The position numbers were made by a program, and so were the translations under genes. A DNA stretch of 60,671 bases, the filler included, from Dugesia japonica (Eukaryota): the NCBI GenBank assembly GCA_001938525.1. It is 4 parts of 4 records of this genome, joined end to end, with 100 filler letters (N's around TTAATTAATTAA, not from the genome) between each part and the next. Parts side by side here need not be neighbours in the genome. Positions count along the whole stretch, not along the records: positions 21,915 to 50,161 come from MQRL01638510.1; 3 more parts are not named here. One strand, given 5' to 3'. Below, piece after piece: positions 26,425 to 53,200 of this stretch (position 1 is the stretch's first letter; each line of letters begins with the position of its first letter). The notes under the pieces are model-generated. The model searched no databases. It was not told the origin of the DNA and was given only the letters and a program-made list of their open reading frames with translations.

Positions 26425-26429
26425 ATAAA

Positions 26430-27115: not shown

Positions 27116-27497
27116 ATGGAGTATTAGATTTTTTAAAAACTTTTGGTATAAATACTAAAACTAATTTTAATTTGTATTCTATTGCAGGTTTTTTAAATTT
27201 AGAATTAGAAGTAAATAATGAAAGATNNNNNNNNNNNNNNNNNNNNNNNGTCGTCAATTCCAATAATTATTAATTATCAAAATACAAATCAAAAAGGAAC
27301 TCATTGGGTTACTTTTTACCAATTTAGAAATTTAGAAATTTAAAAACATGTAAGTGTATAAAACAAAATTCAAGCTCAAACTTTTGGAACTAGTATTTGT
27401 GGAATTTTGTGTTTATATTTTTTATATTCACTTTCATTCCCCACAGAGTTTTGATGAAATTATTGAATTATATGATACCTTTAAAGAATTACTTTAG
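27116..27497 (+). pseudogene. Adenain-like cysteine protease (internally deleted)
   Basis: IIINYQNTNQKGTHWV and Q....TSICGILCLYFL; the intervening YFDS.G motif is missing. Confidence 0.8.
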
Positions 27498-27503
27498 TAT
27501 AAA

Positions 27504-28198: not shown

Positions 28199-28503
28199 AA
28201 GTGGCGTCCGCGGTCACCGCTTTAATATTTTAAAATTTATATTATATTACAATTTAGATGTTAGAAATAGTCTCATGCATGAGCCACCTTTGAATTTTAA
28301 TTGTTGCCACGAACTGCAGTTCGTTTATTTAAATTTTAATTGTGCCTGCAGGCATAGGTTTTTTATATTAAATTTGTCCCGTGGGTCAAACTTTTGTTTT
28401 TTGAATTTTTAGAAATTAATTTTAATAACCTGTACAATTTTATATTTTGAATTTTAGAAAAGCGAACTGCAGTTCACTATTTTTATATTAAACTACAATT
28501 TAA

Positions 28504-31500
28504 TTATTGTTTTAATTTATCTAACCTTAAATCCCACTCACTACAAATTTCACATTTAAACTTATTTCCATGTGGCAAATTGCTTACACCATTATCCTCA
28601 ATTAGTCTTTTATCCTCATAACCTGTTAAAGCTATCTTTTTTTGTTCAACGAATTCTATTTCATGTTTATTAGATTTTAAACTATAATTAGTACTTTAAA
28701 TTTTTTCTTTTGTCTCTAAAGCTTTATCGAATTCCTTCATACCTATTTCATTAAATTTAGATAAACCTTTATGTCTTTTATCTAACTTTTTATTTTGATT
28801 TTCAGTAAATTCATAAGCATAACGTTTTGCTTTTATAAAATTACATTTTGTTATTTCAGAATTTGGTTTTTCATCTTTCATTTGAAATAAATTATTACCT
28901 AATAAACTTTCAACGTGTGTTAAATTATTTCTTCCTATTATTTCTATAAAAATTNAATCTGTGTCACTATAATGTATTTTGTATTTATTTGGGATTGCAT
29001 TATCTAACTGATTCTAAATAAAATCATATATAACTTCTTTGGAATATTCTAAAATAGTAAAACCTATATTTGGAAATTTATTATATTTTAATTTAGATTG
29101 TCTTAAATGAATAGCAGCTGTTTCTACTCGCTCGGTTTCTAGATCTAAAGTTTATTTTTGATGCAAATTTCTGATAATCTTTATCTGTTCCAACTATTTC
29201 TATATTAAACCTTTTTCTAAAATCTTCTAGTGTTTTACCATAAAATGCATTATTTAATAATTTAAAGAAATAATCACCAAATAAATCGTTATTTCTTTTT
29301 GATATGTTTCTCTGATCAATGTTAAATTCTATATAATCCTTTAACCATGGTTTTATTGGAAGGATATATTTTGAATGTATTTTTTAAATTTTCATTCCTA
29401 ATTTTAAATATAAATCTAATGTAAAACCCAAAACAATATAATTTTGTTTTGTCAAATTGATTCAATGGTAATTTAATATTTTTCTTACTTAATTTCTTGT
29501 TAAATAATAATTGATATGGTCCTAACATTTCTTCTTTAATATTTATTCTATCAGGAGCTGGAGGAAAATATTTTGTCTTTTCATGTATTTCTGGAGGATA
29601 TTCTAATTCAACTTCATAAATGTAATTAATTTCTGGGGTTGATTTTTTATATATTAAATTTTCAGATTCAATTATTTTACCAGTTGGTAAAGGTTTTGTC
29701 ATGCAAGAGGCAGAAAGACTGTTTTCATCTAAATATTTAATAAATGTATCTTCAAAATAATCTTGTGAAATATGTTGTATCTTCTTGTGCATATTTTAAT
29801 TGGGCCCCGTCTGGGTTTTGTTTTGTGAATTTCATTCCTGCAGCCCAAGTTAATCCTGGAGCTGAGTAATAATAACTAGGATCTATTTGAAAATTATTAA
29901 GACAAATTTCTCTAAAGTTTTCAAAGAAATCTGTTAAAATAATTACATCTAATTTCATATAAAACATCATATGATCAAAAAAATTATTAAAACGTTAGAA
30001 ATCTTGTATAAATTCATTGTATTCTTGTGCAGTTATTTTTTGTTGTTTTAGTTTATTGTTAAAATCTTCTTTTTTCGGAATATTATTACTTTTTAATAAA
30101 TTAATTACTTGATTAATATTATTTCCTTTTACATATTCATATGGAAATGCTATTTTCTTTGGAGCAAGATTACATGATTTTAAATGATTATAATTATTAG
30201 ATTGATTTAATAATTTACCCATAGTATCAATCGATATAAATGGACACATGCTTGAAGAATCTAAAAATCTAATTTTTCTAAATTCAAAGGAAATGTACAC
30301 TTCATCTGTATGAGTAATTATTCTTTTTACTTCTGTTGGATATTTTGTTAATAATTCTTTGAAAAATAGATGATTGTCATAACCTGAAGNATTGTGAAAG
30401 TAAAATGGTATAAATAATTCTTTTATTGATTTATCTTGTAAATTACAAATTTGATTATCATAACCTCTGAATTCCCCATGAAAGTTATCATGATCTATTA
30501 CTAGATTTTCAGTTATCTTTTTATTACAATATCTACATTTAGTTTCTTGTGTAAAATTTGCATGATCAGTTCTAGTATAATATTCAATTAATTTATTTTC
30601 TTTTATATCTTTTAATTTATTATTAATCTCTTATAAAAATTCAAAGAACTATTAATGTATATTTTCTCCGTAAAATTCTTTATATTCATTTTGAATTAAA
30701 TGTTGATATTTACTTTTGATATAAATTCCTAGAGATAATGGTTTTTGTTTATTGGTAATTGTACTGGTCCAACTTTCAAAATCACCATAAATTACAAAAG
30801 GCAATTCATTTGAAGAATAATAATTTTTTTTAAATGAATAATATTTATCATTTTCAAAATATACTTTAGATGAATCGTGGTTAATACATTCTTTTTGATG
30901 ATTAATTAATAAAGTTTTACTGTGATAACAATTCATACAACATAAACACAAATGATTTTTATTTTATAAGTATTAGCAAAAACACCAACATTTCTACACA
31001 AAATATTATGCCCTTTATAAAATAATAAATTATATTTATTTATTTCTGATGATGNATTACTATCATAATGAGAAATATAAACTGGATTGATTTTAGCAGA
31101 ACTGGTTACTTCAAATACATTTACTTTAAAATCATTTAATTTTTCAAACACTTTTAGATCATCAATACTTGCAGGAAAATTTATTTGTTGTGGTCCGTTG
31201 GATTTTATTTTTAATTCATTTACATAAGGAGTATATTTTGAAACTCTAGTTGGTTGATCTCCAAATACATGTTTATGAGCCAAATTTGAATAAAGAAAAC
31301 AAAAATCATCTTTATTTTTAATATTAATAACACCTGGTTTAATAAAAAGTTATTTTCTATATGAAGACCCACCAACTTATGATTGATATTTTGAAAGTTA
31401 AATTTTAAAATCAACAATACAATCCAAATTCCATCCACTTTGATTTTGATCTTCATATACCATGTATCTTTGAAGTTGATTTAATAACTCTTCCACAATA

Positions 31501-31778
31501 ATTTTTACATCGCTTTTGAAAGAAACTCTTTCATTACTTGAATATGAATTAAATACTCTTTCTTCATCTTCTTTAGTATAATTACAGTTTACATTTAAAC
31601 GTAACATCAACATTTTTGAATAATCAAAATAAATATCTACAATTTTAGTAATTTCTTTTTTAAACCAGGTTATTAATTTAAAATTCAATTTTTGTACATT
31701 TCTAGTTAATTCGATTTTACTTTCTTTAAAATATTCAATTTTATAATACTGTTGATGAAAATTAAAACCATTTGACAT
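28504..31778 (-). pseudogene. polB: Protein-primed family B DNA polymerase (group II/beta type)
   Basis: PFVIYGDFES; FHNXSGYD; RFLDS; FPYEY; DVIILTDFFENFR..C...DPSYYYSAPGLTW; YLDENSL...PLPTG; KLLNNAFYGKT; YSDTD; MKDE; DKR...PHG; many frameshifts. Confidence 0.93.
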
Positions 31779-32496
31779 TCACATACATACACAACATACA
31801 CAACAAGTAATATACAAAACAAATATGAGCAAATAACAATCAGAACGTCCAGCATCACAATCAACCAACTCAATCAATCAATCAATTCAAGCAATCAATC
31901 AACTCAAAATCAATAAATTTTATCTGATTCAATTTTACTAATTGAAACTCTATTTGATCTGATTTGATGTTAACCAAATTGACTTTGTTAAATTGATTTA
32001 TCATAAAATATGTTATTTGTAAATTTTTTTTTATAATATTTCATTTGTAGAATTTTCTATGTAATTAAAAATATCTTATTTATAAAATTGCATATTGCAT
32101 GATAAATTATTTATTAAAATCATGAACAATTATTTACCTAAATTATCAACAAACAATTATGTATAATTTGTAATTTATTGAAATTATCGATTAATAAATA
32201 ACTAATAGAAATTTTTATATATAATTTATCTGTAATAATGGAAATTTATATCAACGGAAATCTTTATGTAAGTTTTATTTATTCTGTAAAATTTTGTAAT
32301 AATAATATTAAAATCATGCATGCCGTATTAGTATAAATAGTGATTAAAATTTTAGTTGGACCTTCTGAGATCCACAACAAAAAGGTTAAAAATCTTGAAG
32401 TAGATAAATTAAAGTTTTGTAACGAAATTTTGTGTTGAATTACATATTTTTTAAAAGAAAATCTTTGATTTTATTAAATAGAACGACTATATAGCG

Positions 32497-32525
<29 letters not shown>
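32497..32525. repeat. (TA)n microsatellite
   Basis: Direct reading. Confidence 0.9.
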
Positions 32526-32528
<3 letters not shown>

Positions 32529-32695
32529 AATATTATTGTATTTATAATAATATTAAGGTATATAGGATTCTTTATCGATAATAATATATTGGGATTGTTT
32601 TCGCAAAATATTATTAAACTCACGCAAAGTTGATTTATTTTAGCAAAATCCCCCAAGGTATCTCAACAATACTTTATATTTTTAAAATGTTTAAA

Positions 32696-33148
32696 TCATT
32701 TTCTTGTTTCATTCTTTTCAAAATCAGTTGCTTCATCTTCAGATAATTCATCAAATAAATATTTAGTTTCTTTTTCTCTCGATTTTAAAACACGCTCTTG
32801 TTGTACTCCACTATTAAAATAAGATCTTGCATGGTTTTGTCTAGTGAATGTTAAATTGCAATAATTACAATTTAAGGCANCTCTAGACCTACCATCATCT
32901 CCACAATTCGTGGAGTTTTTATGCAATCGCAAGCCTTTTTCACTTGCTAATCTTTTGAAACAAATGTTACATGTGTAATAATCGTGTACCGATCTTGCAC
33001 AGGTTCGAGATTGAATATGTGACGACAACCCCGCGTTATTTTTAAAAGTCTTGTTACAAATAGAACATTTAAAAATTAACGCTGAAACACTCATAGGTCT
33101 TTGAAAATTCATATTTGAGATTTGCGTTTCACTTGNGAAGCTACTCAT
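32696..33148 (-). CDS. C2H2/C2HC zinc-finger protein
   Basis: CSICNKTF....GLSSHIQSRTC, CNICFKRL....GLRLHKNSTNC, CNYCNLTF...NH; acidic tail. Confidence 0.75.
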   Translation of the reverse strand: MSSFXSETQISNMNFQRPMSVSALIFKCSICNKTFKNNAGLSSHIQSRTCARSVHDYYTCNICFKRLASEKGLRLHKNSTNCGDDGRSRXALNCNYCNLTFTRQNHARSYFNSGVQQERVLKSREKETKYLFDELSEDEATDFEKNETRK

Positions 33149-33199
33149 TTTATAAATAAATAATTTGGTTGTTTAAAAAAATAACTACCTTAAAGGTTC

Positions 33200-34326
33200 T
33201 TATTTTGAGTTAGATGTGTTTACTGTGTAATTTGCTAAATCGCTTTTAGCTGCGTTAACTCTTTTTATTTCTACTTCATATTCTTCCGAAACTTTTAATC
33301 TTGTTAATCTTTCACATAAATCATCACTATTTTCTTTTATTTTTTTAGCAATATTAATACAATCTTCATTTCTAATAATTAGATCATCATCTTCTTCCCA
33401 ATTTATCAATGTAAGTTTTAAACCTGCATGTTCAATAAATTTTGGTTTTTGAGCTAAATTTAATTGTTCCCTTAACTTATTCTTTTCATCCATTTCTTTT
33501 TGGTAATCAATTTCCAATTGTTTTATAATTTCAATATTTCTTGCGTCTTATTTAGAAAATTGATTTATTAATTTACTCTTACATTCTGATTCACAAAATT
33601 TAGAAACCATAATACTTAATAATATTTTAAAAATTTCACATTCATTAAAATTTTCGACTTGTAAATACATTTCCTTTAAAAGAGCTAAATATGTTTTTGC
33701 TGTTTTATTTGTAATTTCACATTTGGCAAAACTTTTAATTTCCATGATAGTAAATTTTTCAAGATTTGCTAAATTTTTTATACTATTATATAAAGTATTT
33801 ATACCCAAAACTTCTTGTTGTTTTGGGTTAAGAACAACTTGTTTTTACTAGCCATTTTCTTTACTGAAAAATTAAAATTCTATAATTTCTTCCGAACAGT
33901 ATTTTCAACAACTTTTAGAAAATCTGAATCAGTCATTTTACGATAATCTATTTTGGGTTTTTTTATTTGTTGATTTTGTGTTTGTTGGTTTTGAATAGGT
34001 CTTATAGAACTTTGATTTTGTGGTTTAGGAATTTGGTTTTGACTTTGCAACCTCTCATATCTTTGTTTTAAAGATTCATATTAACCATTATTATTTCTTT
34101 TTAAAGTTTTAATCTTTGTTCTTCTATTATAAGGAATATTAAATTCTCTTAAAAATTTTCTCACTGTTTTTTCACTTAAGTTATTTTGTATGGAAAAACC
34201 CAAAACTGAATTTTCAATAAAATTATAACTTTTTAAGAGTTTATAAAATTCTGCTTCAGTTGTATCTAATTTATTCATATTTTTATTACTATTACAAGAC
34301 ATTTTTAAAAATAAAAAATTTAACAC
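33200..34326 (-). CDS. Three uncharacterised ORFs (33200-33517, 33548-33808, 34081-34326), possibly fragments of one or two disrupted viral genes
   Basis: Codon style, packing and strand match the Polinton genes; no recognisable domain. Confidence 0.45.
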
Positions 34327-36049
34327 TATACTATTTCACTACACTGTTTTTTATAATGTATTTACTTAATTCCATACTATTTTTCCATACTTTTATTCCT
34401 TACTTTAATTTTTTTTACTTTAATTCTATACTTTTTTTCATATTCTAAGTTTGTATTAACTCATTTTTAATATGTTTTTCAAAATTAAAAAAATCTAACA
34501 AATTTAAAAATCAAACCAACAGCTCAAGTAGATGTAAAAATACGGTTTCCCGAGAAGTTGTTTATTTATATTCACTATACACTATTTTTTCCAAAGACAT
34601 ATATGTACGTGAAGAAAGATCACAATCTCGATGGGAAACTGTTTTTTTTATCTACTAGGCACGAATAGAGAATCGAATTCTTAGAGAAAACCAAGAACAT
34701 TGGCACCAGCATTAATGAGAAAAAAGAATCAAAAAAATAAAAATAAAAGGCCAATAGCAATTGTGGCGTGTTGTAAAGGAAATGGTATAAAAACCCCTTG
34801 ATTTTAGTAGAAAAACAACCAATTTTCTTTATATTTTAACTGTTGAAAAGCTGCACGACTTAATTTAGAAATCGATCTTATAAACTCGGAAAACGTTTCA
34901 TCACTAGTTGAATAATCACCGCTAAAGTAATACAACTCTAAACGAATTTGAATGTATTATTTAAATCAGAAAAGCAACTGCTCTCAATAATACTTTTGGA
35001 AAGTAATTGGATTACCGATTCAGTAGAAAATAAGAAGAATTAATACTACGAAAAACCCGTTGCAGAAAATCCTAAGAAAGCAAATTGAAGTAATTATTGT
35101 TGTATTTATTTAATGTTGTGTCATGAAGGTGTTTTACTTTTCATAATGATAATTTATTCAATAATAATACAACTTATTGATTTAAATTNAATAAATAATA
35201 TNTAGATTTTTTAAATAAAAAAATGGACAATCAAAAACCGTTTTATTTTTAGAAAAAGTGTGATATGACATTCACCTATTAATCAATTCAAAACCCAAGT
35301 GATATCGACTGTGGTAACAATCGTTTTCCATTCATAATAGTTATACCTGATAATTACAGTGTTCACCTTCTATTTCAGTAGAAAAGTGAGACTGAATACC
35401 ACTGATCCGTCCAAATTCGAGATTGTAGATAACTCTGAGTTAATTCACATACGAATATGAAAAACAACGAGAACCAGGATACAGCTTTCTTTTTTTTGTC
35501 TCAGAAAATTTAGATGGAATTGCGTCAACGACTCATAAGTGAATACGGTGATGACTTAAAGGGTCAATGTGATGAGCTAATCTTCAATAGAAAAAATCCG
35601 TTAAATATTTCCAACCGTAGCGACGAAACTAATAAGATGTAGTTATCATAAATACTCTTAGTATGCACTAAAAAGTTTAAGAAGTGAATAGTGACAATCA
35701 AATTCTTACCTGATAAAAAATTGCTTGATTTTAATTGGATCCCTATAATATAAGAAAATTAAATTAAATACATAAAATCTTACTTAAAAGTTTAACAAGT
35801 GAATTTAATATTAAAATCTGAAAAAGATAGAAAAATAAACAAACACACAGCAAGCACACACATACACACACACATTGTTTTCAAAAAATAACTAAGTTTT
35901 CAAAACTTTAAGTGCTACAATTTTAAAAATGAACTACGAAAATTATGAAGCAATTTCAAGTGCGAGTTCTGACTCAACAGAACCCTACAGGCTTTCAAAA
36001 ATCCGTTCAAAGTAATTCTTTCATTTTTAATTCATATTTATTATATTTT

Positions 36050-36142: not shown

Positions 36143-37488
36143 AAATTTTTGTCTAGAAAATGAAAAAATGTTATGCTGGATTCCAATCATGCACACACGC
36201 TAGCAGTTAAATCAACAGTCGATTACTGGACCCACAATTTTGACTCATTACAAATCTGCATTGGACAGAGTTGCATATTAGAAAAACTCGTCAGTCACAC
36301 TTACCAGTAATATCTGTAAATCTGCCAGCAATATTTTTTGTTCAGTGACGGCTTGGTTGAGGGCAATTCTGTATTAGTCTAATAACAGGACTATGAGTAA
36401 TTAATCCCATCATCTGGCACTGATAATGTTTGTAATATTTAAATTTTTAAGTAATGTAACAAAGTTATATGCAGTACCAAAACTATGTATTACCAATAGA
36501 ATCATTATCCTAGTACCAATATTCATAGGACTATTCCGGGTTATAATACTTTGGAAATGTTTATTATAATTGGTGTCATCTTAACATTATTACTATTATG
36601 GTTGTTATACGATTAATTATTATTAACCCTAATTGATCTACTATGTTTATTAATATCCACGTTATCATTAACAATCTTACTATCATTGTGAGTTATTCAT
36701 AACATTATTATTATTAGTAATATTACTGCTAATGTAATTATTATTATTGATTAATATGATCATTATTATGATTACTATTATTATGCTGATGAATATTATT
36801 GATATTATGATTTAAACAATGATCAATATGGGAATTATTATTATTATTACCCATGTTGCCACAGAGTTTATATTTATTATCATGGTCCCGACTCCTGTCG
36901 GCATCGTTATTTATTACCAACGGGACTCCCGTTATCATCGATTTTGCTAAATCTAACTAACTATGCGTTAAGTCTATTAATACCAGTAAAAGGAGTATTT
37001 ATCGACGTTAAGGGATCCTAGGACATTATTTATTGCTAATGCTAATCTATATCAGTTTGAATTAAGGAGTTCATATTGATGTGGAGTTACAGTGAATTTT
37101 AACCCTCATCTTATTTAAGAAATGTCGGCGTAGTTGAGGAACGCTTTACTCAAAATTTTGAAATAACGTCGGTCGGCACGACAAAAGCAACTCATCGGCC
37201 ACCCCCTGTTCCCGGACCTCGTAGAACACCAAGTCGAAACCGAGATGTTCCCGTTAAAATATCAGGTTGATATAGACACGGAACCTTAATTGCCATCGAT
37301 TTTGTTTAATGTTTGACATTTAATAAACTTTCATTATTTATCTTGTTCTCAACCAATTGTCTAAAATTTCACTATTAATGTTAACCATAGTTACTTCTAG
37401 CTAGGATGGAATTCAAATGAGAAATCTTAATAGACCACTGCACGGGTAGTATAGTTTTTTAACGATATCTAAACCCACATAACCGAGA

Positions 37489-39024
37489 TGTTGGGGTGTT
37501 GGTAGATCGTCCCAATCTACCTACAGAGGAGGCCGAGGATGAGCGACAATAAGACGCAGCCAAGCGTCGCGCCTTTTACGAGTGGAACGGTCCCAACCGA
37601 AAACGAGCAGTATATCATTCCACTACGGCTTTCCCCACCGATTAACAATGAGACGCGCACCACTAATAAGTGTGTAAAAGGCATTTGCCCACTTTTCACA
37701 ATCTTACCACGTTTGTACAGAATAACATCTGGAACATACACAACGACGAGGAAGGCGGAAGTTAGGAAAATACGGGTACTGTCACCAATAATGTAACTCC
37801 GTTGTAATTATTATGTTTTGAGTAGTGAATAACCAAAAAATTCCAACCATTATATTTATTTCTTATTTTATTCGTTTTCTGGCAACCATCGTAAATAAAT
37901 CAATTCACTATTTTAAATTATTGATTCTTTGTTGCGTTGTCGAATTTTCATAATTACTAACGATCTAGCTTTTATAGTGAATTCGTCATTGAATCGGTCA
38001 TCAGCTCCCACTAAAAAATGAGGGAAACGAGTGAAGACTCCGAAATAACGTGGGACTTGTATCGTCTCGTAAAGCGTCGCTTGGAGGCCGTTACGGCGAC
38101 AGCGGAAAGTAAAGCAAAAAGATATAAAAAGAAATGCATAGAGTTTCGTAGAACGGAGGCCTCCCATGCACAAGACAGACTCTGAAAAAGCCAAGGTTAT
38201 CCGGTCCCTCCATGACCGTGAGAATAAACTGGTATCAGATATTCTGTCATTACTAAAGGCTATGCATCTAGAGAGGCTAATAGTTGATAAAACCACACCA
38301 ACATCGCGGACATGACTTCTTATGTTCTTACAGTTTTGCAAATAAAAGATTTCTCGATTTATATTGACTTACTTTCCGTTTGTTTATGTTTATTTTTTGA
38401 GAATTCTTCTAATTCTAATTTGTGTCAGTATCTAGAATTCAGTTACCCACAAGTCTCCGGAGGTGTCACTGTCTCATTTAAAAATTATTATTGGAACGCC
38501 ACATTAAGCGTCAAAATGAAAGAGCCTAGTTTCGACACCTGACACAGCGCAACCGTTTAATTAAGAAGCTCGACCAAATAGTGAAAAAGCAGAGGGAGTT
38601 GGCGAACAGACTAAACAGACACTACAGCATAAGATTGACTTCCTGCAATATTATATAACAGATTTAACAATACATCTTTTGGCTCCGTTTGAACGACAAC
38701 GACGATGAAGCCGTCTTCAGCATTTTAGATGAGGAGCCTACCCAAGGGTTAGACCCGAAGGCCTCTGGATTTTATATAGAATGTCACCAAATAAATCTTA
38801 GTTTTAGTAATTTATTAATTAATATGGTTAATTTCAAATAAGGGACAATTTTGAACCCGAAACAAATGTTGCCCCTCAAATAAATAAATAAATGTTGGAG
38901 GTCAACCGCTCTACACTAAAAATCTAAATAGGGACATTAGATTAAATTCTTAAACGGGTACCCTGAGGGCTGTTTTTTCCCCAGCCATGTTTTTTCTACC
39001 ACAAACTCAGGTGGCACCCCAACA
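37489..39024 (+). mobile_element. Unclassified element copy A (TGTTGGGG...CCCCAACA) with three coding-like blocks
   Basis: 3' ~150 nt homologous to 44378-44495 and 52307-52379; block GEQTKQTLQHKIDFLQYYITDL...DNDDEAV...PTQGLDPKASG; true 5' end uncertain and may lie further upstream. Confidence 0.6.
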
Positions 39025-39960
39025 TAAAGTCTGCCAAAAAAAACAAAGAAAAATTTTTAAATTACCCACCAAAAAAATATTTTTTAGAATTTCCCGCCAA
39101 AAAATGTTTTTTTGAATTTCTCGCCAAAAAAGATTTTAAAAATAATAAGACTTTCCTCTCCCTGTTCAAAAAAAATATTAAAAACAACCTTTCCCAATCA
39201 AAAATATTCAAAAATACCATTACTTTCAATAAATTCATCATGTTAAGCTAAATACAGCATTTTTAACCAAAATAAAGATTTCAAAACATTATTATGTCAC
39301 ACACTCCCTACCGAAAAATATTTTTTAACACTTTTATACTACTAACAAATATCAATCAATCAAATTCAACCACAACCAATCAGAAATTAAAGCACAATCG
39401 ACATAACAAATATCCACCATCACATTATCTCTCTAACAACCCATCAACCAACAAAATCCAACAACTCCATACAAAGATACATTCTCTCAAAAAAGACCGC
39501 ACAATAACTCATACAACTGTGCCCGTGCGCTACCATAGTCCTAGGACATACCATCCATCCAACCTCATAAGTCCTTTAGACAATGTATAGGCAGAAGTTT
39601 TGTCCAACAACAACCAAATCTTAAAAACTCAAAAAAAATTATTTCTAAGATCTCCAGCTCCAACTCGTGTCCAAATTCACTCTTTCACACGCACACACAC
39701 TCACTCACACACAAACTCAACTTGAGATACTTTTTAAAAACCACCTTAGCAACCCAAACACACGCAAAATTTAAAAATACACACAGGATCAAAAAAATAA
39801 GATCCGATTAAAAAAAATTATCCGATCAAAAGTTTTTTGATCCCAAAAATCTTAGGAAAAACCCCAGCACAATCGTAATGTATTTCCGACCCCCCCAGGC
39901 GGGGCTCCCCCAAAATTATGAATATTTCGAATTTTGCCCGTGCGCTACTATCACACTACT
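39025..39960. repeat. Putative Maverick terminal/subterminal region ending ...CTACTATCACACTACT
   Basis: Reverse complement begins AGTAGT, typical of Maverick ends, followed by a GC-rich block; GCCCGTGCGCTAC recurs at ~39521; ~28-bp tandem units at 39065-39140. Confidence 0.55.
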
Positions 39961-40702
39961 GGTGACGAAGGTGATTGGAGAAATTTCAGGTGCAATTGTA
40001 TATTTGTAAAACATTCTGGGTTTTTCGAAGAGTAGGTAGTAACATTATAAAATCATTGACGAAGCATTGGAAAGTATTATAAAATCTGGATTGTGTAAAT
40101 CCGGAAAAAATATCAGTTCATGAAGAGTGAAATTAAGTTTTTGGAGTATATTATTTGTGAGAAAGGGGTCCAAACAGATCCGTTGAAAATTGAATTCATA
40201 AAAACATTCGGTCCAAAATGTGGTCTAAGAAATAAAAGTTGCAGTGAACTACAAGGTCATATGTAAATCGCTACTATTAATAGCGAAGTAAAGTCAGAAT
40301 CTTTAACCTCTTTAAATTAGCATATAAGATCTAAGATTTCTGAGTCAAACGATCACCAAATAAAAATAACGAATGTAAATTATTTGTTAAACCCATAAAT
40401 ATTTAAAAGTAAAACATTTTTTCGATATTAAATAGTTTAGTAAATAGTTTACCTATATATAATTTTAACAATATTTATCATATTAAGATTCCAATTCATC
40501 ACAATATATAATTAACAATTTATTCTGATAGTGAGAAAAGTTTCTTTAAAAACACGAAACGCTGCTTTATCCTTGTTATAATCGCAAAGGTATCTCAACA
40601 TATTTATTTTATTTATGGTTTTAGGAAATATATATGATTTTTATTATGCAAATACAAATATAAATTTTTTTCAACTACTATTACGAATTTTATAATTACA
40701 AT

Positions 40703-40852
40703 TATTGCGAGAATAATTGTTGNACTTAACCATTGATCGGATTTCAGATTTCATTAAAATAAGATAAAGCTTCGATCAAAACAAAATTTATTTGAACTTT
40801 TTTTACAAAAAAATTTGATTTTGATCGAAGCTTTATCTTATTTTAATGAAAT
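40703..40852. mobile_element. MITE copy with perfect 34-bp foldback
   Basis: Homologous to the reverse complement of 1661-1782; arms 40748-40781 and 40819-40852. Confidence 0.6.
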
Positions 40853-41699
40853 ACTATTGCGAATTTTTTTATTCAGATATTTCCTCAACTATTGCAATAT
40901 AATCTGAGATTTTCTGATTTCGAATATAAAAATAACTGTGATGTTATTTAAAAAGTCATTAATTTCTATATGTAATTATAATTAAATTATTTTATTATAA
41001 AATAAATTATGGAAATTTTAAAATAAATTTTACAAAAGAAACAGCTAAAATTCTTTAAGTTTGTCTCTCAAANNNNNNNNNNNNNNNNNNNNNNNNNNNN
41101 NNNNNNNNNNNNNNNNNNNNNNNNNNNNNNNNNNNNNNNNNNNNNNNNNNNNNNNNNNNNNNNNNNTTTTAATGAAATTTTAAAAATGAATGATAGTATG
41201 TTTTTAAGAATTTTTTAAACTCTTTTTTTAGTAATTAATATAATATCGAATATAAATATTAGTGAAAATAAAGAAAGAGGAAATCGTGTAGGCTTACGTA
41301 AATATGTAGTAGAAGATGTTCTATTAAACTGTGTCACATTGAAAGAAGCAAGTGCGATGATATCACTATCTAATAAATAATATAACAAATTATATAAATT
41401 TTTATTCGAAAACGTTATTTTTAAAAGTTTTTATTTGTAAGATATGTTTCTATGTATCTATCTATGTCCCTCATCAGTTAATGCAGTAAAATGAAATGGA
41501 AATTGTTTATATATTGGCCAATAAAACAGGTTACGCAATCAATCTATTAGAAGTGAATGTGTTTCCTAATTCCACTAAAATAATTACCATTAGACACCAC
41601 CGCTGTTCAAAACTGTAAACTCATCTATACTTATTTCGACTTTTCTATTTTCACAGCACCGAAAGTTTCCTATTCCATTGCATATGCTCACTAACACAA

Positions 41700-41925
41700 T
41701 ATGTAACCTTATTGTTAGATGGGTTTGAAAAACCATGCACATACAATTCCAACCAGAGAAACTGAAAAAGTAATCAGTTGCAGCATCTACATTTTGTGAC
41801 AATAATCACACTTTCACAGTGTATTCAAACAATATTGAAGTTTTAATAGATACTAGGTCACTCCGTCATTAACTATTCAAAAACAGCTCCAAAACAAACA
41901 AAACATTAACTGCCGCAAACGGAGT
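41700..41925 (+). pseudogene. Gypsy (CsRN1-like) gag end and protease fragment
   Basis: EKPCTYNSNQRN* then, in another frame, SVAAS...FTVYSNNIEVLIDTRS...KTLTAANG (LIDTG and L.AANG protease motifs). Confidence 0.55.
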
Positions 41926-42616
41926 ATGGAACAAATGGGAAGAGAGTGTATTGGACAAATTATTTGAAATTGAAGGTCGAGAATTACCGCCATTTGACTT
42001 AAAGAGAGGATATAATATTAACGAATTGATTCCTGATGTTTCGCAATTCGGACAATTTCAGTTGGATATACAAGAAAACGGTAATCATAAGATTAATGTA
42101 GTTTAATTGACGTAGACTGATCGTCGACACATTTATTTGCTGAATAGATATCAAAGAATAATCATTTATTGATAAGGTGGTACTAAAGTTGAATAATATA
42201 GAAAGAAGTGAAATTTTAATAAAATAATCGTATTTGATCCAAATAACATTCAGAATTACTTAAATGATGTAAGAAGACGTATCAAAAGGAGATGTTTCAA
42301 TATGATATTAGTTTTTCTACCAGATTATCTATTTTGTGCTGAAGTTAAATCAATTACAAAGAGAATGTGTCTGTTAACACAATGCTTTACGAAGAGGTAT
42401 TTAGACAAAGAGAATGATATAAAGAGCAATCTTGTTGTAGATAATACGACTATACAAGTAATTATTAAGCTTGGACATGATCTGAATGCTAATGAAATTA
42501 CGATAGGATCAATAATGATAGTTGGTATTAATATAAACACACAAAACATATAGAAAATAGTCAATTCAAACATCACTATTTTTAAGGAAAATTACATTTA
42601 TCAATACATGTGTTGA
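41926..42616 (+). pseudogene. Piwi-clade Argonaute fragment (L2-MID-start of PIWI)
   Basis: W....LFEIEGRELPP; MILVFLP...AEVK....LLTQC; IQVIIKLGHDLNANEITIGSIMIVGINI is colinear with Piwi/Aub IQMNAKL.G.PW.V.IPL..LM.VG.DV; several stops. Confidence 0.72.
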
Positions 42617-43492
42617 GATCTGAAAAGCAAACATTTACAAGCATACACAAATATATACATAAACATAACAAAGCAAACATACACAAGCATACAAATCCTC
42701 AATGTAATGAAAATCAATCAAGCCCAACAGTTCAGAATCAGTAATCAATTCTATGAGATCATCAGCCAAGATCAGCATTTGATATTTATTCAAATTCCCA
42801 TGCAAAATCAATAATCATTGATAACATTATTTTATAATTGAACATTTAACATTATTATTTTACTGGACTTATTTATTTTTATTTTTATGTTTTGTAAAAT
42901 AACAAATTTTAATTTTGTGAAATAACAGATTTTTCATTTATTATAATATCACGAATGAATAACATAATTATTTGACCTTATGTTTAGACAGAAAACTTTT
43001 GCACACATTTTATTTTATTTTGGACAAAATATTAATTGATTAGTTTGTGTGCGGGTTATTTCTCTAAAAATTATCTAACATTTTATGTAAATAATGATTT
43101 ATTTATTGTTCATTTATTGTGTTGCATGGTTTGGTGTGTACAGAAAAATCAGTATAAATACTGATCCTTTTTAGTTATTTTTCGAGTAACTTTTAATCAG
43201 TTGGAATCCAACCTCTCTGGGCGGCATCTCCAACTAGATTCAAAATTAGCCTATAAGGTATATAAGTTTTACAGCAAACTGCATCATTTTATATACCAAA
43301 AATAAATTGTAGAAGGTATATCATTTTAATTTATTTATATAGGGCAAATATATTATATCACCATATCTATAATTTTGAGAAAATATCAATTATATAATAT
43401 CGTATTGACAGATAAAGGGTAAAATCAACACCCGTAAATTTAGAGACATACTATCTATCAGTAGTTATAAAATAAACGAACCATAAATATCT

Positions 43493-44495
43493 TGTTGAGC
43501 AGAAATACCCAACACATGGGTTTCGTGAACAAAGCTTGTGATTCCGAAGAAATAATGGAGACGAATTTCAATCCAGGAACAGAAGAATTCAAATAATGAT
43601 ATCATAGTTTCCTGTTTAATATTAATATGTTTAAGGAAAATATAGATGAAAATCAGTTGAATTTAAAAATAAAGCTGAATTCATTAATCCATTTATTGTA
43701 AATATTTTCCTCTTTACCGCTTCACGAGTCCCACAAGTAATTAACGTTATTATTAAAAGCGATTATTCAACCAAGGATATAATCTATATCTTGGAGCCGT
43801 TGTAGATAATGTCAATGAATTTTACCTAGTCTCACAAAAATCACAGAACGTACCACAACTCCAACACTTTACAAAATCCTTAAAGAATGAAGAGTAAAGA
43901 TTGAAAAAAGATAATAATAATAAAAACAATATTCATAATAAAAATTATTATAAAAAAATAATAATGTTAGGCTAGAACGCTAAATAAATTGAAGAACTAA
44001 AAATTTCTGAACAAACGAAACTAAATACGCAAATGAACAGAAATATTGGGAACAGTGATGGACCTGAAACCAAACTTTTATTACAGCGCAAAATCGAGTT
44101 TTTAAAGCAATACATTGCTGACCTAGCTAGTCGGATTGGCAACCCAAACACAAACCAGTGGGATGAAGACGACGATATTGCGGCGATTAACTTTGTCACC
44201 ACAACCCCCGATCAATGGCTAGATCCGGAAGCATTTGGCCTAATTTAAATGTTATACTGCTAATAAATATTTTAATTAGAATTGTAAGAAATTGTTTAAT
44301 TTTCTTAAATAGTAATAGGGAAAGTATGTAGAACTCGAACTAAAGGTTTATTGGTGTGCACCTTTCATCAAGAGTAAGGTCAACCGCAGTAAACGTAAAA
44401 CCTACCACAGGGACGGTAGGCTAAATTTTTGAAGGGGTTCCCCTGAGGGAGTTTTTTTCCCCGGCCTCTTTTCCAACTCAGGTGGGGCCCCAACA
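43493..44495 (+). mobile_element. Unclassified element copy B (TGTTG...CCCCAACA)
   Basis: Starts TGTTGAGCAGAAATA; contains ORF 44033-44248; structured 3' end; abuts a truncated Maverick polB. Confidence 0.6.
44033..44248 (+). CDS. Small unknown protein of the CCCCAACA element
   Basis: GPETKLLLQRKIEFLKQYIADL...DEDDD...PDQWLDPEAFG aligns with the 38590-38775 translation despite nucleotide divergence. Confidence 0.55.
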   Translation: MNRNIGNSDGPETKLLLQRKIEFLKQYIADLASRIGNPNTNQWDEDDDIAAINFVTTTPDQWLDPEAFGLI

Positions 44496-44992
44496 GTTCT
44501 ATTATTTAAATACTCCATTGTCTTACTTCCTTTCTTACATATTTCTTCTTTCGAATAACAATTTAAACATCCATGAAAGTAACAACCATTGAATTCATAT
44601 ACGTAATGAATTTGGGTTATCGAATCATAATAATATCCGTCTAACTTGTAACAACTTATTGCCTTTTCTCCTCATATTTTGGCATATTTTATGTTTACTT
44701 TGTTGATATAGCTTAAATATTCGAGCCAATGTAAAGATTTGGAAGAATAAACATCGTCAAAGTCGGATAGTCTTGGAATTCCTATTGTATTATTATTAAT
44801 AATAGACATAAATGTTTTGGCACATACTTGCGCAATGGTAATATATTGAAAAGGATCTAAATTCAATAAATTACTATTAGGCATCTTTATTTTCATAAAA
44901 CCGTTTTGGTATATTAAACATCCTTTTGCCAATATCATCACATCTGTTAAGCAATAATAAAAATAATTTATTTTGAAAATTAAATATCTCAT
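44496..44992 (-). pseudogene. polB: Group I/alpha-type Maverick pPolB fragment
   Basis: YCLTDVMIL...DPFQYITIAQVC...SSKSLHWLEY...I.YA..GEK....KLDGY....VYEFNGCYFHGCLNC (Vsr-like insert typical of group I polymerases). Confidence 0.85.
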
Positions 44993-46399
44993 TTACTAAA
45001 GTTTCTTTGCGTCCTGTATGAAAATAACTATTTAGATTTAATCTAATTAAAGTGTGAAATACTGTATAATTATTGTATAATTCGGGTTATTATTTGTTAT
45101 ATCATCTAATATAAGTTCTAAACAAGCTTTAAGGTTTTGTTCTGTCATTATATAAGGGGAAATTGTATATGTATGAACAACGCCTCTATATTGACGATAA
45201 TAATGCGCACCAAGATGGTTGACGCGATTAAAATCATATATTATTAATTCACTAAATAAATTGTCTTTAAATTCGCGCTCTTCAAAAAGTAGACTTTTAT
45301 CTATAGCTCTCCATTCTTCTAAAATAGTATTTATGTTTGCTGTCCTTTTTTAAAAATCAAAAATAAAAATTATTTATTTATTAAAAAACTAAAATTTACG
45401 CAAATATTCCAAGTTCAAGCATAGAAATTAGAACAAATTATTTTAAAAAATAAAATTATATAAAAGCCATATTTTATGGAACTTTTTAAAAATAGCATCT
45501 ACATTCTTTTTTATTTACAAAGTTATTCATAAAATAATAATTCTGTAAATATATAAATTGTATTTGCATCATGAGAAATTATCTCATAATGAAGTCTCTC
45601 GTTTAAATAACATACTTTTGATAGCGCGACATTATTGAAAGAATAAATCAATCGAGAATTTCGGTACAACAATAAGTAATATTAAAATTAATGGTTTTTT
45701 TACTTGTCTTGAAAATCTATTCTCCCTTTTGATTTAAAAAGCCCAAAAAAGGGGGATTAGGACACATTCACTGTCAAAAGTGGGGGGACAAACGCGGGCC
45801 ACCTTATGTTAAAATACTGCAATAATATATTATGGGGGTCTCTACGACCCGTTTTCTTTATTAAAATAACGTTAAATATGGTTTAATATTATTATCTAGT
45901 TAAACTGGTTTAGTCACTAGTATCGTAAGATTTTCTGGTTTTCCAAATAATGATTCACTTGGGAAACCAGACAGTAAAAAGAAAGCACATTCATTTGACA
46001 CGAATTTGGATAATCCAAATTTAATGTCAATCAAGTTGTGTAGAAAACCCTGGAAGTAGTGGAGAGATGATGACTGTCGAAAACGTGAGGTGTGTAAATA
46101 AAGTACACTATACATCAATGTAAATCGGCTAATGATACGGATACATTTCGAGATAGAGGCAAATGATTGGTAGATCAATGCTAGCTCACTAATCTGAAGG
46201 AGCAATAAAAAATTTGAACCCGAAGACAAATTACCATAATTTCCAATTTTAAATTTTGGAATATTTTGACCAGCTAATTTATCAATTACTTGAAAATTTT
46301 GAGACAATCATTGACATCAGAAAAGACAAATCAAAATAAATCATAATTTATTTTATTAAAAATTTTATCATATTAGCACTAGTGCTATTTACAACCCAA

Positions 46400-46570
46400 A
46401 ATTCTTGAGTCCTTGTAAATAATGTCTATGAATTTTATCTAGTCTCTAAAAAATGACAGAACGTACCACAACTCTAACACTTTACAAAATCTTAAAAGAA
46501 AGAAGACTAAAGATTGAAAAAAGATCATAATAATAATAACAATATTCATAATGATAATAATAATAATAAT
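46400..46570 (+). repeat. Diverged direct repeat of ~43790-43945
   Basis: AATGTC.ATGAATTTTA.CTAGTCTC...CAGAACGTACCACAACTC.AACACTTTACAAAATC shared. Confidence 0.8.
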
Positions 46571-46572
46571 AA

Positions 46573-47290
46573 TGTTGGGGTGAAACACTCCTTTCAAAAG
46601 GAAAGCCAAACGAATGGCTAAAAAGGAGAAAAAATTCAACTCCTCGAATATCGGTTTTGAGTAACCAGTACTGCTAAATTTGGAAAAAGTGATCAAATAA
46701 AAGATTGAAATATCAAGAAGTAGATAAGAAGTTCTCATGCAAACAAATCTAACCCACATTAATTACAGTAATCAAAAGAAGTAGTGAAATTAATAATAAA
46801 AACAAGGAAAATATCATTGTAAAAATATTTAATTATCCAAAAGCAGAATTAATTTCAAACCGAAAATAAATTTAAATTAATCAAAAAATCTGTTTTTTAC
46901 AAATAACTTGATTCTGGGTAATCACAGAGACTCAGGGAAAAAAATTCGAGAAGAAAATGTTAAAAGGCATAAAAATTTCATAGCCGAAAAACTTTGCAAC
47001 CATCAGAAGAACGACCACAAGGGTTGGAAAATTGGGCCAATAAGAACCTGAACAATAAACATAAAAAAAACAACAATGATCACATGGCGTTCCGAAAATA
47101 GACACCAATGAGAGTTCTAAAACTCTGCAAAAAAATCCAAAAATTAGGAGCATTACCAATCAAAGCAAAACATTTGGAAGAAAAAATAACAACTATGCCG
47201 AGTTGCATAGGAACAGCTATTTAAACCCCCCAGAATTTAGCAGAATAATCACAAAAACAGCAACAAATTTACCCACAAGTATTTCCTACA
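46573..47290 (+). mobile_element. 5' fragment of TGTTGG-terminated element family
   Basis: TGTTGGGGTGAAACA immediately after an (AAT)n run, then an A-rich tract; right boundary approximate. Confidence 0.4.
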
Positions 47291-48779
47291 CTTTATTGGT
47301 CAAAATCGTGAATCAATATATCAATTTTGCAAACTTATAAATTTCCGAAAAAGTTGTTACAAGTTATCGCGCATTACTTTTACTAGTATTGCCCTATCAG
47401 TTGCCTAAAGAAGAAAAAGAACAGAGTAAAGCAAATCGCTGCTGTCAACCGATAATTCAAGAATCGAACCGTTTTAGTTATCCATAACTTAAATTAGTGA
47501 GTATCAATTTTTATGATTATTTGTGTATCTATTATTATTAGCAAAATGAAAACTTAATGTCGATAAAATACATTAATGTTAATCATGTTTGTAGTTTATC
47601 TTATTGATAATCAAATTATTTATATGTTCAGTGCATTAATATTGATATTCAACCCAAAATTGACCCTAACAATCGATATACTAATTTTTAAGTAAAAGAA
47701 ATTATGTTTCTTTTAAACACATACAACACGCCAAATGATTTTCAGGACAATCTATAATAAAATATCATAATGATTGCTCTTATTAANAAGCTCTTCATCA
47801 ACACATCGATAGTGTTATTAGCAAAACCCATTACGAGTAGGTGTGTTGATGCACTGAGTCATCTCCACACACTCATTTAATCACACCGGAATTTATCATT
47901 TTATCTATTAAAAACCCTTTGACAATTAACTAATTCGGCAAAAACAAAAGAATGAAGCCATCAATTACGACGGAATGCATTTCGATGTAAAATGGAAATT
48001 AATAGTGATTATATCTTTGCTGGAAATAGTAGTGGAATTTTTCATTCTAGAGGATTCTGGGGTCTCCTTCAAATATTCTTATCTAAAAGGGATATTATGG
48101 TGTGATTTTCAACTTTCGCTATTTCATACAGGTACGTAACACATTTCTAATCATCGCATGTGAGTAGAATCTACCTGGTTATCTTCGTCAACCACGTCCT
48201 GGTGAAAGACCACCGTCAACTTTCAATCATCCATATCACTCTTATTGCAAGAAATTATCCTGCTGAGTTGATCGTGAGAATATTTTTCTTTGTTATTAAG
48301 GAGTATGTATGCATTTGTCGTTATAATTAATATATCCTTTATTTGTGTCAAACAAAATTTCTTTTTTGATCAATATCGTTAATATAATTAATTGAGATAT
48401 TTGTAGGAATATTTAAGATATTGTTATTATAATTTATTATGGTCATTATTAAAATCATCCCAAATGGATTTGTCAACAAGTTTATCCCCCTTTGGGTTAC
48501 TTCCGAGTTTCACTTTTGTGGACAAAGATCTAATTTTCTGGTCATGGTTGCAATGATTTTCGTCTCATTAGGGGTTGAGAATAGAATATCTGTAATTATG
48601 AAAATAAATGGTAGAAGGCATTCTTGGAGAAAGTAAATTCATCACTACGACCAACCCAAGTAGGGTTCTAAAACGGCTCGTCACTTTTACCAGTAGAAGG
48701 TAAACGCTATTCACCCCGCTCGTGGTATGTGAACTTTTTATTCCCCATCCTGACGTTATAATGATACTAATGTATACAA

Positions 48780-50161
48780 ATATAATATAATGTAAACAAA
48801 CCTGTATCTGCTGGTTTGTGATAAATCTCTGATTCATAATGCTTGGACTTTCGTTCTATTAATAAGTCCAGGAAAAACAGTTTAGATTTACATTCCATTT
48901 CTGTAGTGAATTTAATGTTGTTATGCAACGAATTCATATAGTTTAGGAATGGGTGAATATCAACTTGGTTATTAAAAATCAGAAATATATCATCCACATA
49001 GCATTTATTCACATGCAGCTTATTTCCAATAAACAAATCAATCTTTTCCTCAATATTTGCCAAAAACAAAGAAGCTAAAGTAGGATCCAGAGGTGAACCC
49101 ATAGCAACTCCATCAACTTGTTTGTACCATTCATCATTTAACAAAAAATGTATATATGATGTAGCAAAGGTCAAAAGTTCCTTAAAGGCAGTCACAATTA
49201 ACAACGTATGCTCAGACAAATTTTTTTCCCATAATTCACAACAAAGATTAATAGTTTCATCTAATGGAACATTTGTAAATAAACTAACAACATCAAAGGA
49301 CACCATACATTCACTACAACTACCAACTTCAGTTTTAGAAATAAAATTACAAAAATCAAAGCTATCTTTGCATACATATTTGGAGTCAATCAAAGGTTTA
49401 ATTTTATTNNNNNNNNNNNNNNNNNNNNNNNNNNNNNNNNNNNNNNNNNNNNNNNNNNACAACATCAAAGGACACCATACATTCAGTACGACTACCAACT
49501 TCAGAGTTAGAAATAAAATTACAAAAATCAAACCTATCTTTGCATACATATTTGGAGTCAATGAAAGATTTCATTTTCTTATCGAAAAACTTAGCAAGAT
49601 TATACTGAGCTGTGTAAATTATGGATAACTTAGGTCTCATAGGAACATTACTCTTATGGACTTTAGGAAGACCATACAACTTAGCTGGCTGTGAACCAAC
49701 CACTTTAAGTACCTTATACAATTCAGAATCAAGAATTTTATCACTGATTAATTTTTATAATAAACCATTCAAACTTTGATTGGTAGCAATTTACTATTTT
49801 TACCAAATTTATTAATTTTACAAATTGCGGTTCTTTCAAAACCTCCTCTATTTTACTTAAATATTCAAAATCATTCAAAGTTACAAGATCATTACCCTTA
49901 TCAAATTTACAAATTTTTATTGGTTTTTGGTAGAATTTTTTAAAATATTAAAATCACTATAACTTTGTTTAAAGTTTTTGTTTAAATATTCATTAGAATA
50001 TTTTAGTAACGCATGTTTTAAATTTCAAAAATTACAATCAAAGTTTATTCCATCAAATTTAGTCAAATAAATTTTAAAAATGACTCTATTTTAGATTGAA
50101 ATTGAAATTTATCAATTCTTTTTATAATACCGAATTTAGTTCCAAATTTTTATAAATTTAT
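48780..50161 (-). mobile_element. Penelope-like element reverse transcriptase (truncated)
   Basis: DKGN; LYGLPKVHK..VPMRP; MVSFDVVSLFTNVP; QVDGVAMGSPL; YVDDIF; IKFTTEME; FLDL. Confidence 0.92.
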
Positions 50162-50261: not shown

Positions 50262-53200
50262 TTATCAATTTGACTTAAAGCTGCATCTATTCTATCAAAG
50301 CTGGTATCAGTATCCAATATAAGTTCTTTAGAAAAATTCGGAAATGCTAAAACTGGAGCTTTCATTAGTTTAGCTTTCTAATTTTTAAAATAAATTTCGC
50401 ACTCATCTGTCCAGTATATTTTTTCCTGGTTACTACCACATAGGTTTTCTAAACCCTTTGAATACTTTGTGTAATCCTTTATAAATTTCCTATAATAATT
50501 TGCGAGGCCTAAAAAACTTCTCAACTTTTTAACACATTTTGGGGTTTCAAAATTAAAAATTGCTTCAATTTTTGCACTATCAGTATGGATTCCTTTTTGA
50601 ACTAATAATATTACCCAGAAATTTTATCTCGTTTTTCATGAAATGACATTTAGATGGACTTATTTGTAAACCAGCTTCTTTTATCCGTTTCAAAACATTG
50701 CCAATTCTCTTATAGTGTTCTTTAATAGTTAACATTAAAATATCATCTAAGTAAACCACTGCTTTCTTCCAATTTAATGGACCTAAAACCTTATTCATCA
50801 ATTTCTGAAAAGTAACAGGAGCAGCTGCAATTCCAAAAGGCATTCTATTAAAATAATATTGCGCACCTCTTGTCGAAAATGCAGTTTTGCATTTTGAGTC
50901 ATCTGTTAATTCTACTTAATAGTAAGCATTATCCAAATCTATACTAGTANNNNNNNNNNNNNNNNNNNNNNNNNNNNNNNNNNNNNNNNNNNNNNNNNNN
51001 NNNNNNNNNNNNNNNNNNNNNNNACAATCTATAATCTAAGCAAAGTCGTATTTCATCATTGTCTCGTTTTTTAACGCAAACCAAAGGAGCATTCCAAGGG
51101 GAGTCACATTTACTTATCATTCCATTTATTTCCATTTCTGTAATATTTTGTTCAATTTAATCTATTAAATGATAAGGTTGACGCCTAGGATTAATTGCAA
51201 TTGGTTTACTATCTGTTATTATTTCATGTTTTANNNNNNNNNNNNNNNNNNNNNNNNNNNNNNNNNNNNNNNNNNNNNNNNNNATTTCCTCAGTGTTTGG
51301 AATAGGAAAAATTGGTCTTTCTGTAACTTTATTTAACAATCTATAAACTAAGCAAAGTTGTATTTCATCATTCTCTCGTTTTTTTCTCAAATCAAAGGAG
51401 CATTCAAAGGGGAGTCAAAGTTTAGTCAATCTTATCTATTAAATGATAAGGTTGACGCCTAGGATTATTTGAATCAGTTTACTATTTGTTATTATTTCAT
51501 GTTTTACAATATTAGTTTTTCCAATATCCCAATTATGTTTCAATATAATGCCTTTATATTTTTTAAAATCGACAATATAATTTATCTTTAATATTTTCAA
51601 TTTCTAATGTTTTGGGTTTAAATTTAATTACATTAACAGATTCTTCATTAATGGTGAGTTTTATATTAAATTTATTCAATAGATTTATTCCACAAATAAG
51701 AGGTGTTGAGATTTCTTTAGAAACATAAAAATAAATATTCTCCATTTTTCCATTAAGCTTTACATTTAAAAATACTTTTCCTACAATTTCTAAAGAACTA
51801 TTGTTAAGTAATAATAAGAGAGAGAGAGAGATAAGTAATGATATCAAATTATGTATTTCACAACAATGCTATNNNNNNNNNNNNNNNNNNNNNNNNNNNN
51901 NNNNNNNNNNNNNNNNNNNNNNTTAATGGTGAGTTTTATATTAAATTTATTCAATAGATTTATTCCACAAATAACAGGTGATGAGATTTCTTTAGCGCCA
52001 TAAAAACAAATATTCTCCACTTTTTTATTAAGCTTTACATTTAAATATACTTTCCTACAATTTTTAAAGAACTATTATTCGCACATTTGACATTTATATC
52101 AGAATCAATTATTGAAACATTTCCTATTCTTTTTAATAATTCATATTTAATACCACTAACTTTAGCTCCAGTATCAAGTAAACATGATGTAACAATATTA
52201 TTAATATTTAAATTTATCATAGGTCAATTATCTAGGGTATTATAGTTTTCAGAACTTTCTTTATCAAAATTAGTAATAATTGATAAATTATTTTTATCGT
52301 TATAATTGTTGGGGTTCCACCTGAGTTGGAAAAGGCGTGACTGGGGAAAAACAGTCCTCAGGGGAACCCTTTCAAGAATNNNNNNNNNNNNNNNNNNNNN
52401 NNNNNNNNNNNNNNNNNNNNNNNNNNNNNCATTTCCTATTCTTTTTAATAATTCCTATTTAATAACACTAATTTTAGCTCCAGTATCAAGTAAACATGAT
52501 GTATCAATATTATTAAATTTTAAATTTATCATAGGTCGACTATCTACGGTATTATAGTTTTCATAATTTTTTTTATCAAAATTCTTAATAATTGATCAAT
52601 TATTATTATCATCATAATTATCATTACTTCTATAATTATTTTTATTATTAACAATTATATCAAGTATAACATCATCACACAAAAATATATAACAAAAATT
52701 ATTTGCAAGAAATTCAATAACATACACACATTTACAATCATTATCAATCATTCAATTGTTGCTCAAATCAAATCTTACATTTTTTTAATGAATCCCCCCC
52801 GACAACTTCCTCTCTTGGAAGGGCTTTGGCTTTTTGGAATTGATCTGTCATAGTTCTGTCATCATCTGTCATCAAATCATCTGAATGTTCATCGTTTGTA
52901 ACAACATTGTATTGACGATAATCTCTTTTCATCTCCCGTATATCATAGCATTCATGTTTAAAATGTCTAGGTCTGTTACACTGGAAACATTTTACATCTA
53001 GACAATTAGCTCGGACATGTCCTTCTTCTTTGCATTCCTAACATGGTTTAGATCTTTGTGGAAAACTATTGCCTGTTCTCTTAAATCCTCTTCCGTCAAA
53101 ACGATTAATGGATGCATTTGAATTAACATATTTTCTGAAATTCGAATATCGATTTCTGTTGTTTTCTACTAAATTATACCTTTTAAATGTGACTGGGCGA

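Follow-up and report, generated by a model that had tools for sequence, protein, structure and literature searches.

The terminus of a large repeat family in Dugesia japonica: conserved, probably structured, and likely the end of an LTR retrotransposon

What kind of element leaves behind a short block of DNA that recurs with similar hairpins and stops at the same base in unrelated surroundings? The question is raised by a 60,671-nucleotide stretch, filler included, from Dugesia japonica (assembly GCA_001938525.1; four parts joined end to end, of which positions 21,915 to 50,161 come from MQRL01638510.1), hereafter the window, which at 27% G+C is AT-rich animal DNA dense in mobile elements. An earlier note on this DNA had read positions 38898-44495 as one multi-hairpin structure at the 3' terminus of an element; the span holds instead two separate copies of a terminal block, and a third lies further along the window. 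This block is a real and conserved terminus of a large repeat family, and probably a structured one. Its best explanation, to which we give a probability of about 0.6, is the R-U5 (repeat and unique 5' region) RNA element of a long terminal repeat (LTR) retrotransposon, likely to serve at the priming, strand-transfer or packaging step.

Exactly three copies of the block (A, B and C) emerge from the window, whether by self-comparison, with a DNA profile or with a covariance model; they are 73-81% alike in pairwise comparison. All three stop at the same base in CCCAACA, their flanks being unrelated from the next base onwards, and neither a poly(A) nor a simple-repeat tail was found beyond this end at the three copies. 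The 3' short inverted repeat at the integrase end of animal Gypsy and retroviral LTRs has the consensus YNYAACA (PMC3601003), which CCCAACA matches at 7/7 positions in 3/3 copies (chance about 0.002 per site by composition); as the copies are related, this counts as one observation. Copy C sits within the AAT-like tract of a Gypsy gag-protease region, and a paralogue at 52575-52628 is empty there, giving a clean junction. Near-duplicates flanking the N gaps (52118-52619, 51024-51506, 51648-52079 and 49287-49580; 73-93% alike) suggest paralogues collapsed in the assembly, so junctions close to copy C need caution. Position 46573 was considered as a fourth copy and rejected, its similarity being no better than that of shuffles and the terminal block not being found there. 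Pattern scans for further copies returned 57 loci (viral, 0; metagenome, 35; viral, 22), none of which matches the covariance model at E<=1, so that they are taken as chance matches.

How large is the family that ends in this way? Two DNA runs were mapped to positions 36800-39200 at 80% likeness, yielding summed contig depth, not copy number: the unique flank stands at 14.9 and 12.3, most of 37124-38905 has bin means of about 20-1,300, and position 38973, inside the block, reaches 34,607 and 50,416. This excess of 2,300-4,100 times the single-copy level, together with more than 110 contigs per run at 38952, indicates thousands of look-alikes, and a block so far above most of its upstream sequence in depth points to the conserved end of a large repeat family. 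One 37-bp stretch, 38197-38233, within an upstream reading frame, has a depth similar to that of the block. The top summed contig depth (127,048 and 367,113) belongs to a different, minisatellite-like repeat at 39040-39170, right of copy A. Two RNA runs placed 17 and 193 reads on 36800-39200 (2 of them at at least 95% likeness), the minisatellite-like repeat receiving more of them than any other part, and no pile-up of read starts or ends was found.

The hairpins themselves are real sequence features (Table 1). The terminal stem of copy C, GGGTTCC-CCTGAG...CTCAGG-T-GGAACCC, is fully paired and that of B is G-U compatible, in agreement with the earlier description of these two copies, from which the less regular stem of copy A had been left out. 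The inner 5-bp hairpin reads GACTG/CAGTC in C and GGCTG/CAGCC in A, so the covariation proposed for it stands as one A-U/G-C change between these copies, but it does not extend to B, where the hairpin, said to be weak, is in fact absent: 2/5 positions are able to pair and the pair probability is 0.0 at all five. The upstream hairpin, found in A and B only, reads AATCTAA/TTAGATT in A and CCTACC/GGTAGG in B and carries AGGGAC in both loops; its proposed covariation is borne out by two two-sided changes, alongside one break, but one of the two hinges on the placement of a 1-nt gap (MAFFT versus model-fitted alignment). The suggested contact between the loops, GGGA with TCCC, is a 4-bp match that is invariant, hence without covariation support, and at chance level, being equalled by 47% (A) and 29% (B) of loop shuffles (P 0.3-0.5).

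Table 1. Features of the terminal block and of the sequence upstream of it, in window positions
Feature	Coordinates	Strand	Description
Copy A	38899..39024	+	Holds AGGTCAACCGC motif, upstream hairpin and a terminal stem enclosing an inner hairpin; ends in CCCAACA; depth spike
Copy A upstream hairpin	38921..38943	+	7 bp; AGGGAC in loop; core pair probability about 0.8
Copy A terminal stem	38956..39019	+	One A.C mismatch, one C fewer; encloses inner hairpin 38968-38972/38982-38986
Copy B	44377..44495	+	Right end adjoins presumed Polinton-type DNA polymerase B fragment on - strand
Copy B upstream hairpin	44401..44420	+	6 bp; AGGGAC in loop; fold z -3.4
Copy B terminal stem	44435..44490	+	Two U-G pairs; inner hairpin does not form
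Copy C	52307..52379	-	Last 73 nt only, rest cut by assembly gap; 18-bp stem 52369-52312 fully paired
Upstream repeated part of A	37123..38898	+	Further decayed small frames 37103-37270 and about 37440-37800
Second small broken frame in A	38015..38315	+	Contains high-depth stretch 38197-38233
Small frame upstream of copy B	43988..44248	+	86 aa between stop codons; its homologues in A, at about 38530-38770, are broken
Candidate polypurine tract AGGGAAAG, TA, TGTAGAA	44317..44333	+	Candidate left end of an LTR of about 170 bp in B (putative)

Three two-sided changes are thus solid, two in the upstream and one in the inner hairpin. A fourth, in the inner helix of copy B, was discounted because it depends on gap fitting and because that helix has zero pair probability in B. 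When the neutral decay of perfect stems is simulated, at least three two-sided changes in 24 pairs arise with P 0.003, 0.008, 0.019 and 0.068 at per-branch changes of 0.10, 0.125, 0.15 and 0.20, respectively. On the structure-fitted alignment 59/62 cells pair, and the pairing level and the covariation score are each equalled in 5/500 shuffles, and four two-sided pairs in 17/500, figures to be read in the light of unconstrained related sequences, which reach 5/500 on pairing and covariation score in 5-25% of trials. RNAalifold, run on the unfitted MAFFT alignment, which puts copy A out of register, recovers the terminal stem alone, with 0/13 two-sided changes. Selection on pairing, hence on single-stranded structure, at the end of the element, as the earlier note had proposed, is therefore plausible and modestly supported, by the three solid two-sided changes and by a block shared far more widely than most upstream sequence; this is suggestive, and three copies cannot establish it.

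If the block is the end of an LTR, where does that LTR begin? Copies A and B remain homologous for about 300 bp upstream, across a small reading frame which, in B (43988-44248), was under purifying selection: over 51 codons aligned with A, 36/73 differences fall at third positions (P 0.003), and 17/23 codons for the same residue are silently different. Protein searches found no homologues of the B frame, and for the other broken frames of A they were blank or below a usable score. Candidates for the 5' short inverted repeat, TGTTRNR, stand at 37123 (5/7), 38849 (6/7), 38893 (7/7), 43965 (7/7) and 44327 (6/7), and near 37123, where depth departs from the single-copy level, lies either a candidate left end for a 1.9-kb LTR or a point of truncation. 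Upstream of copy B, AGGGAAAG is the sole such tract in 43900-44495, and this purine tract followed by two nucleotides and TG, with TGTAGAA matching TGTTRNR at 6/7, resembles the junctions formed by two Gypsy elements of the window; the homologous site in copy A, near 38840-38855, is weaker. In both copies the block is preceded, at a distance of about 105-115 nt, by an aligned AATAAA. Two models follow. Under one, an LTR of about 170 bp would start in the 44317-44333 region of B, and the small frames would be 3' accessory genes; under the other, a long LTR would start near 37123 in A, and the shared AATAAA would place the structure in U5. The block would be the R-U5 end under both.

Two other left ends were set aside. 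TGTTGGGG at 37489 was rejected because 94% of the X1 contig depth has another base at 37491 and because repeated sequence continues further left. Exact TAAA flanks occur at 38893 in A, though homology runs on upstream of it, and a self-contained 132-bp unit (38893-39024) within these flanks is considered unlikely, since homology carries on upstream in B and likewise in a contig from another copy (X1 record 8). As a separate observation, a TGT(T/C)GG(G/C)GT stretch, reading (D/N)VGV, starts several decayed frames (37123, 37489, 46573) and may be a repeated coding motif rather than an element end. An approximately 180-bp duplication, 86% alike (43789-43971 and 46403-46579), ends in both places with an AAT-like run, then TGTT(A/G)GG, then divergence; we take it to be a Piwi/Argonaute fragment, with further Argonaute-like pieces presumably at 41870-42550.

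A number of observations weigh against an LTR end. For no copy was a second LTR, a primer-binding site or an adjoining pol gene found in the window; copies A and B, only about 73% alike, enclose no pol gene, and the sites after 3/3 block ends, where no primer-binding site was found, are all outer junctions; loose ends at 39024 do not appear among the 19 listed, 869 more being unlisted. Target-site duplication was not found for B at its candidate ends, and A is flanked, at 37123, by a 4-bp pair with one mismatch (GAAA/TAAA). The left end is left unsettled by the five TGTTRNR candidates, protein-coding frames so near an LTR end are unusual, and AATAAA is not inside the short-LTR model of B. As to the structure, the terminal 13-bp stem shows 0 two-sided changes, 11/13 pairs being invariant and two varying one-sidedly, and the whole block folds better than shuffles in copy C only (z -0.07 in A, -0.31 in B and -3.76 in C; -1.07, -1.62 and -3.94 for the terminal part). 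The strand is also unsettled: C folds better on the other strand (-30.9 vs -27.0), the wobbles of B favour the + strand and the mismatch of A favours the - strand. Finally, few RNA reads fall on the block (mean depth 0.6 and about 6), and the X12 reads are mostly first-mate +, which would be antisense if the library is stranded. LTR membership, for which one defining feature was found, is probable rather than established, mainly because the window holds only outer ends.

How would such an end work? The block is the conserved right end of a high-copy repeat, in whose RNA a small hairpin and a long terminal stem are predicted to form, and its last bases may make up the integrase attachment site. 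In a 5' LTR, transcription would place it at the very start of the genomic RNA, with the primer-binding site next to follow; there the terminal stem could control the access of primer and reverse transcriptase, help first-strand transfer, or act in dimerisation and packaging, these being roles of R-U5 structures in Ty1 and retroviruses. The copies described here are decayed outer ends, in which the breaks of A and B likely arose after insertion. The block had also been put forward as a possibly new priming, packaging or catalytic motif: priming or packaging fits the R-U5 location and is thus a known kind of feature and not a new one; a catalytic role found no support.

Could the block be conserved for another reason? 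The strongest competitor of the R-U5 reading, though an unlikely one, is that an LTR or transposon end is conserved as double-stranded DNA, the CCTGAG/CTCAGG pair and the G-run/C-run blocks being inverted protein-binding sites, and that the compensatory changes come from quasi-palindrome template switching or chance rather than from selection on an RNA fold. The near-invariance of the terminal stem, the mixed strand preference, the loss of the inner hairpin in B, and folding of A and B no better than shuffles agree with it. In contrast, both smaller hairpins change their sequence yet keep their pairs, with fixed loops, which is unexpected for binding-site repeats.

Somewhat less likely again is that the block serves a target-primed element (LINE-like, Penelope-like or a non-autonomous passenger) as its 3' recognition structure; reverse transcriptase would bind the hairpins and start at a fixed 3' end, leaving 5'-truncated copies. 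This would account for a fixed end whose upstream part differs in length (about 1.9 kb in A against about 0.5 kb in B), for the lack of a clear target duplication, for a depth that climbs steeply towards the 3' end, and for a block that comes after a stop codon, as a 3' untranslated region would. It sits poorly with the 7/7 integrase consensus and the untailed end; no reverse transcriptase or endonuclease frame was found upstream, and there is no hammerhead core at the copies. Moreover, a short upstream stretch, 38197-38233, equals the terminus in depth, and truncation by itself would not lead one to expect this.

A bolder proposal, and a doubtful one, is an undescribed large retroelement family with small orphan accessory proteins, in which a folded terminal RNA of two hairpins in loop-loop contact would dispense with a tRNA in priming or handing over reverse transcription, or would cleave itself. 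Improbable, too, is that the block ends a rolling-circle (Helitron/Helentron) or tyrosine-recombinase element, where a hairpin in single-stranded DNA would terminate or circularise the element. The absence of a clear target duplication, the gene-like fragments inside and the terminal hairpin speak for it. Helitrons end in CTRR at their 3' side, however, and the end here is AACA; self-comparison revealed neither long terminal inverted repeats nor an internal complementary region, and folding with DNA parameters beats shuffles for copy C alone. For a Ginger or other terminal-inverted-repeat DNA transposon, inverted matches to the block at the candidate left ends are no longer than 8-10 bp.

Least likely of all is a new self-cleaving ribozyme docking its AGGGAC loop on the TCCC loop. 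Retroelements often carry ribozymes, and the block does combine several hairpins with conserved loops and with an 11-mer that is conserved and single-stranded. Against this, the loops are no more complementary than chance would have them, B has lost the inner hairpin, and the Rfam matches on the copies are sub-threshold only (E 0.37 or weaker), none of them a ribozyme. The Rfam search proposed earlier thus gave no catalytic support: against Rfam 15 (HDV-like, twister, pistol, hatchet and others) no copy reaches the gathering threshold. The hammerhead core has the form CUGANGA - stem II - GAAA, and a regular-expression scan of the window gave six matches, none of them at the three copies.

The surroundings of the block are themselves made of decayed mobile elements. 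Three Gypsy elements in the window have matches to reverse transcriptase, RNase H, integrase or zinc-knuckle domains, and two decayed Gypsy elements with short LTRs (about 175-210 bp) occupy 10204-13303 and 13470-18136, each within AAT microsatellite runs and in the same orientation, which suggests microsatellite targeting. Polinton-like, Penelope-like and Argonaute/Piwi-like pieces are assignments that we make from motifs recognised in translations. We thus take about 24800-34400 to be the decayed remains of a Polinton-like element whose protein-primed polymerase lies on the - strand, and about 44496-45700 to be a second polymerase fragment, interrupted by copy B; the Polinton type of this adjoining polymerase B fragment is likewise presumed from its motif. 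A presumed Penelope-like reverse transcriptase fragment lies at 48767-49950 on the - strand, and no hammerhead core was found near it in the scan of the window. Exons that by eye we take to be those of an ionotropic glutamate receptor-like host gene stand at 54130-54560 and 60430-60600. Long palindromes resembling miniature inverted-repeat transposable elements, at 9155-9315 and 40748-40852, give microRNA-family Rfam matches below threshold.

What would the block add to what is known of retroelement ends? Per the literature found, functional RNA structures at LTR ends have been mapped mainly in yeast Ty elements and retroviruses. If the fold holds, an invertebrate family of likely thousands of diverged copies would offer a natural data set for R-U5 covariation. 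The block also provides a short marker by which to recognise a repeat family that, further upstream, has diverged too far to be found, and its upstream frames direct attention to small accessory proteins without known relatives. An LTR-end signal leaves current understanding unchanged, and only self-priming or catalysis, if true, would alter it. No description of the block motif was found in the literature searched, repeat databases and supplements lying outside that search.

Compared with known systems, the block shares a structured RNA at a retroelement end with Penelope-like elements that carry hammerheads, and differs in that no catalytic core was found in it. Burro and GYPSM1, the giant Gypsy elements of planarians (PMC6431247, PMC8532177), resemble the family by description, with thousands of copies, accessory open reading frames and decayed fragments in an invertebrate genome, whereas no Burro domain was found here. 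The Ty1 5' RNA domain forms a pseudoknot and kissing hairpins through 7-nt complementary motifs proven by compensatory mutation (PMC5454406); the block likewise has several hairpins at an RNA end presumed to derive from an LTR, and a kiss between complementary loops has been proposed for it, but the loops match over 4 nt, in a pairing that does not vary and is no better than chance. Ty3 offers a precedent for dimerisation of the 5' RNA (PMC11381356), and the retroviral U5-IR stem-loop one for RNA structure in U5 (PMC3601003): its stem, too, closes a few bases from the U5 terminus, while that of the block, in its predicted fold, is longer (13 bp), with an inner hairpin and a large bulge. The closest parallel is the right end of Metaviridae (Ty3/Gypsy) and retroviral LTRs (PMC3601003). 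The differences are the paired LTR, primer site and clean target duplication not found in the window and the small coding frames 130-1,900 bp from the end; shared are the 7/7 match to the 3' consensus, an end more conserved than the sequence upstream, T-rich stretches near the block end, and a candidate purine tract followed by TG.

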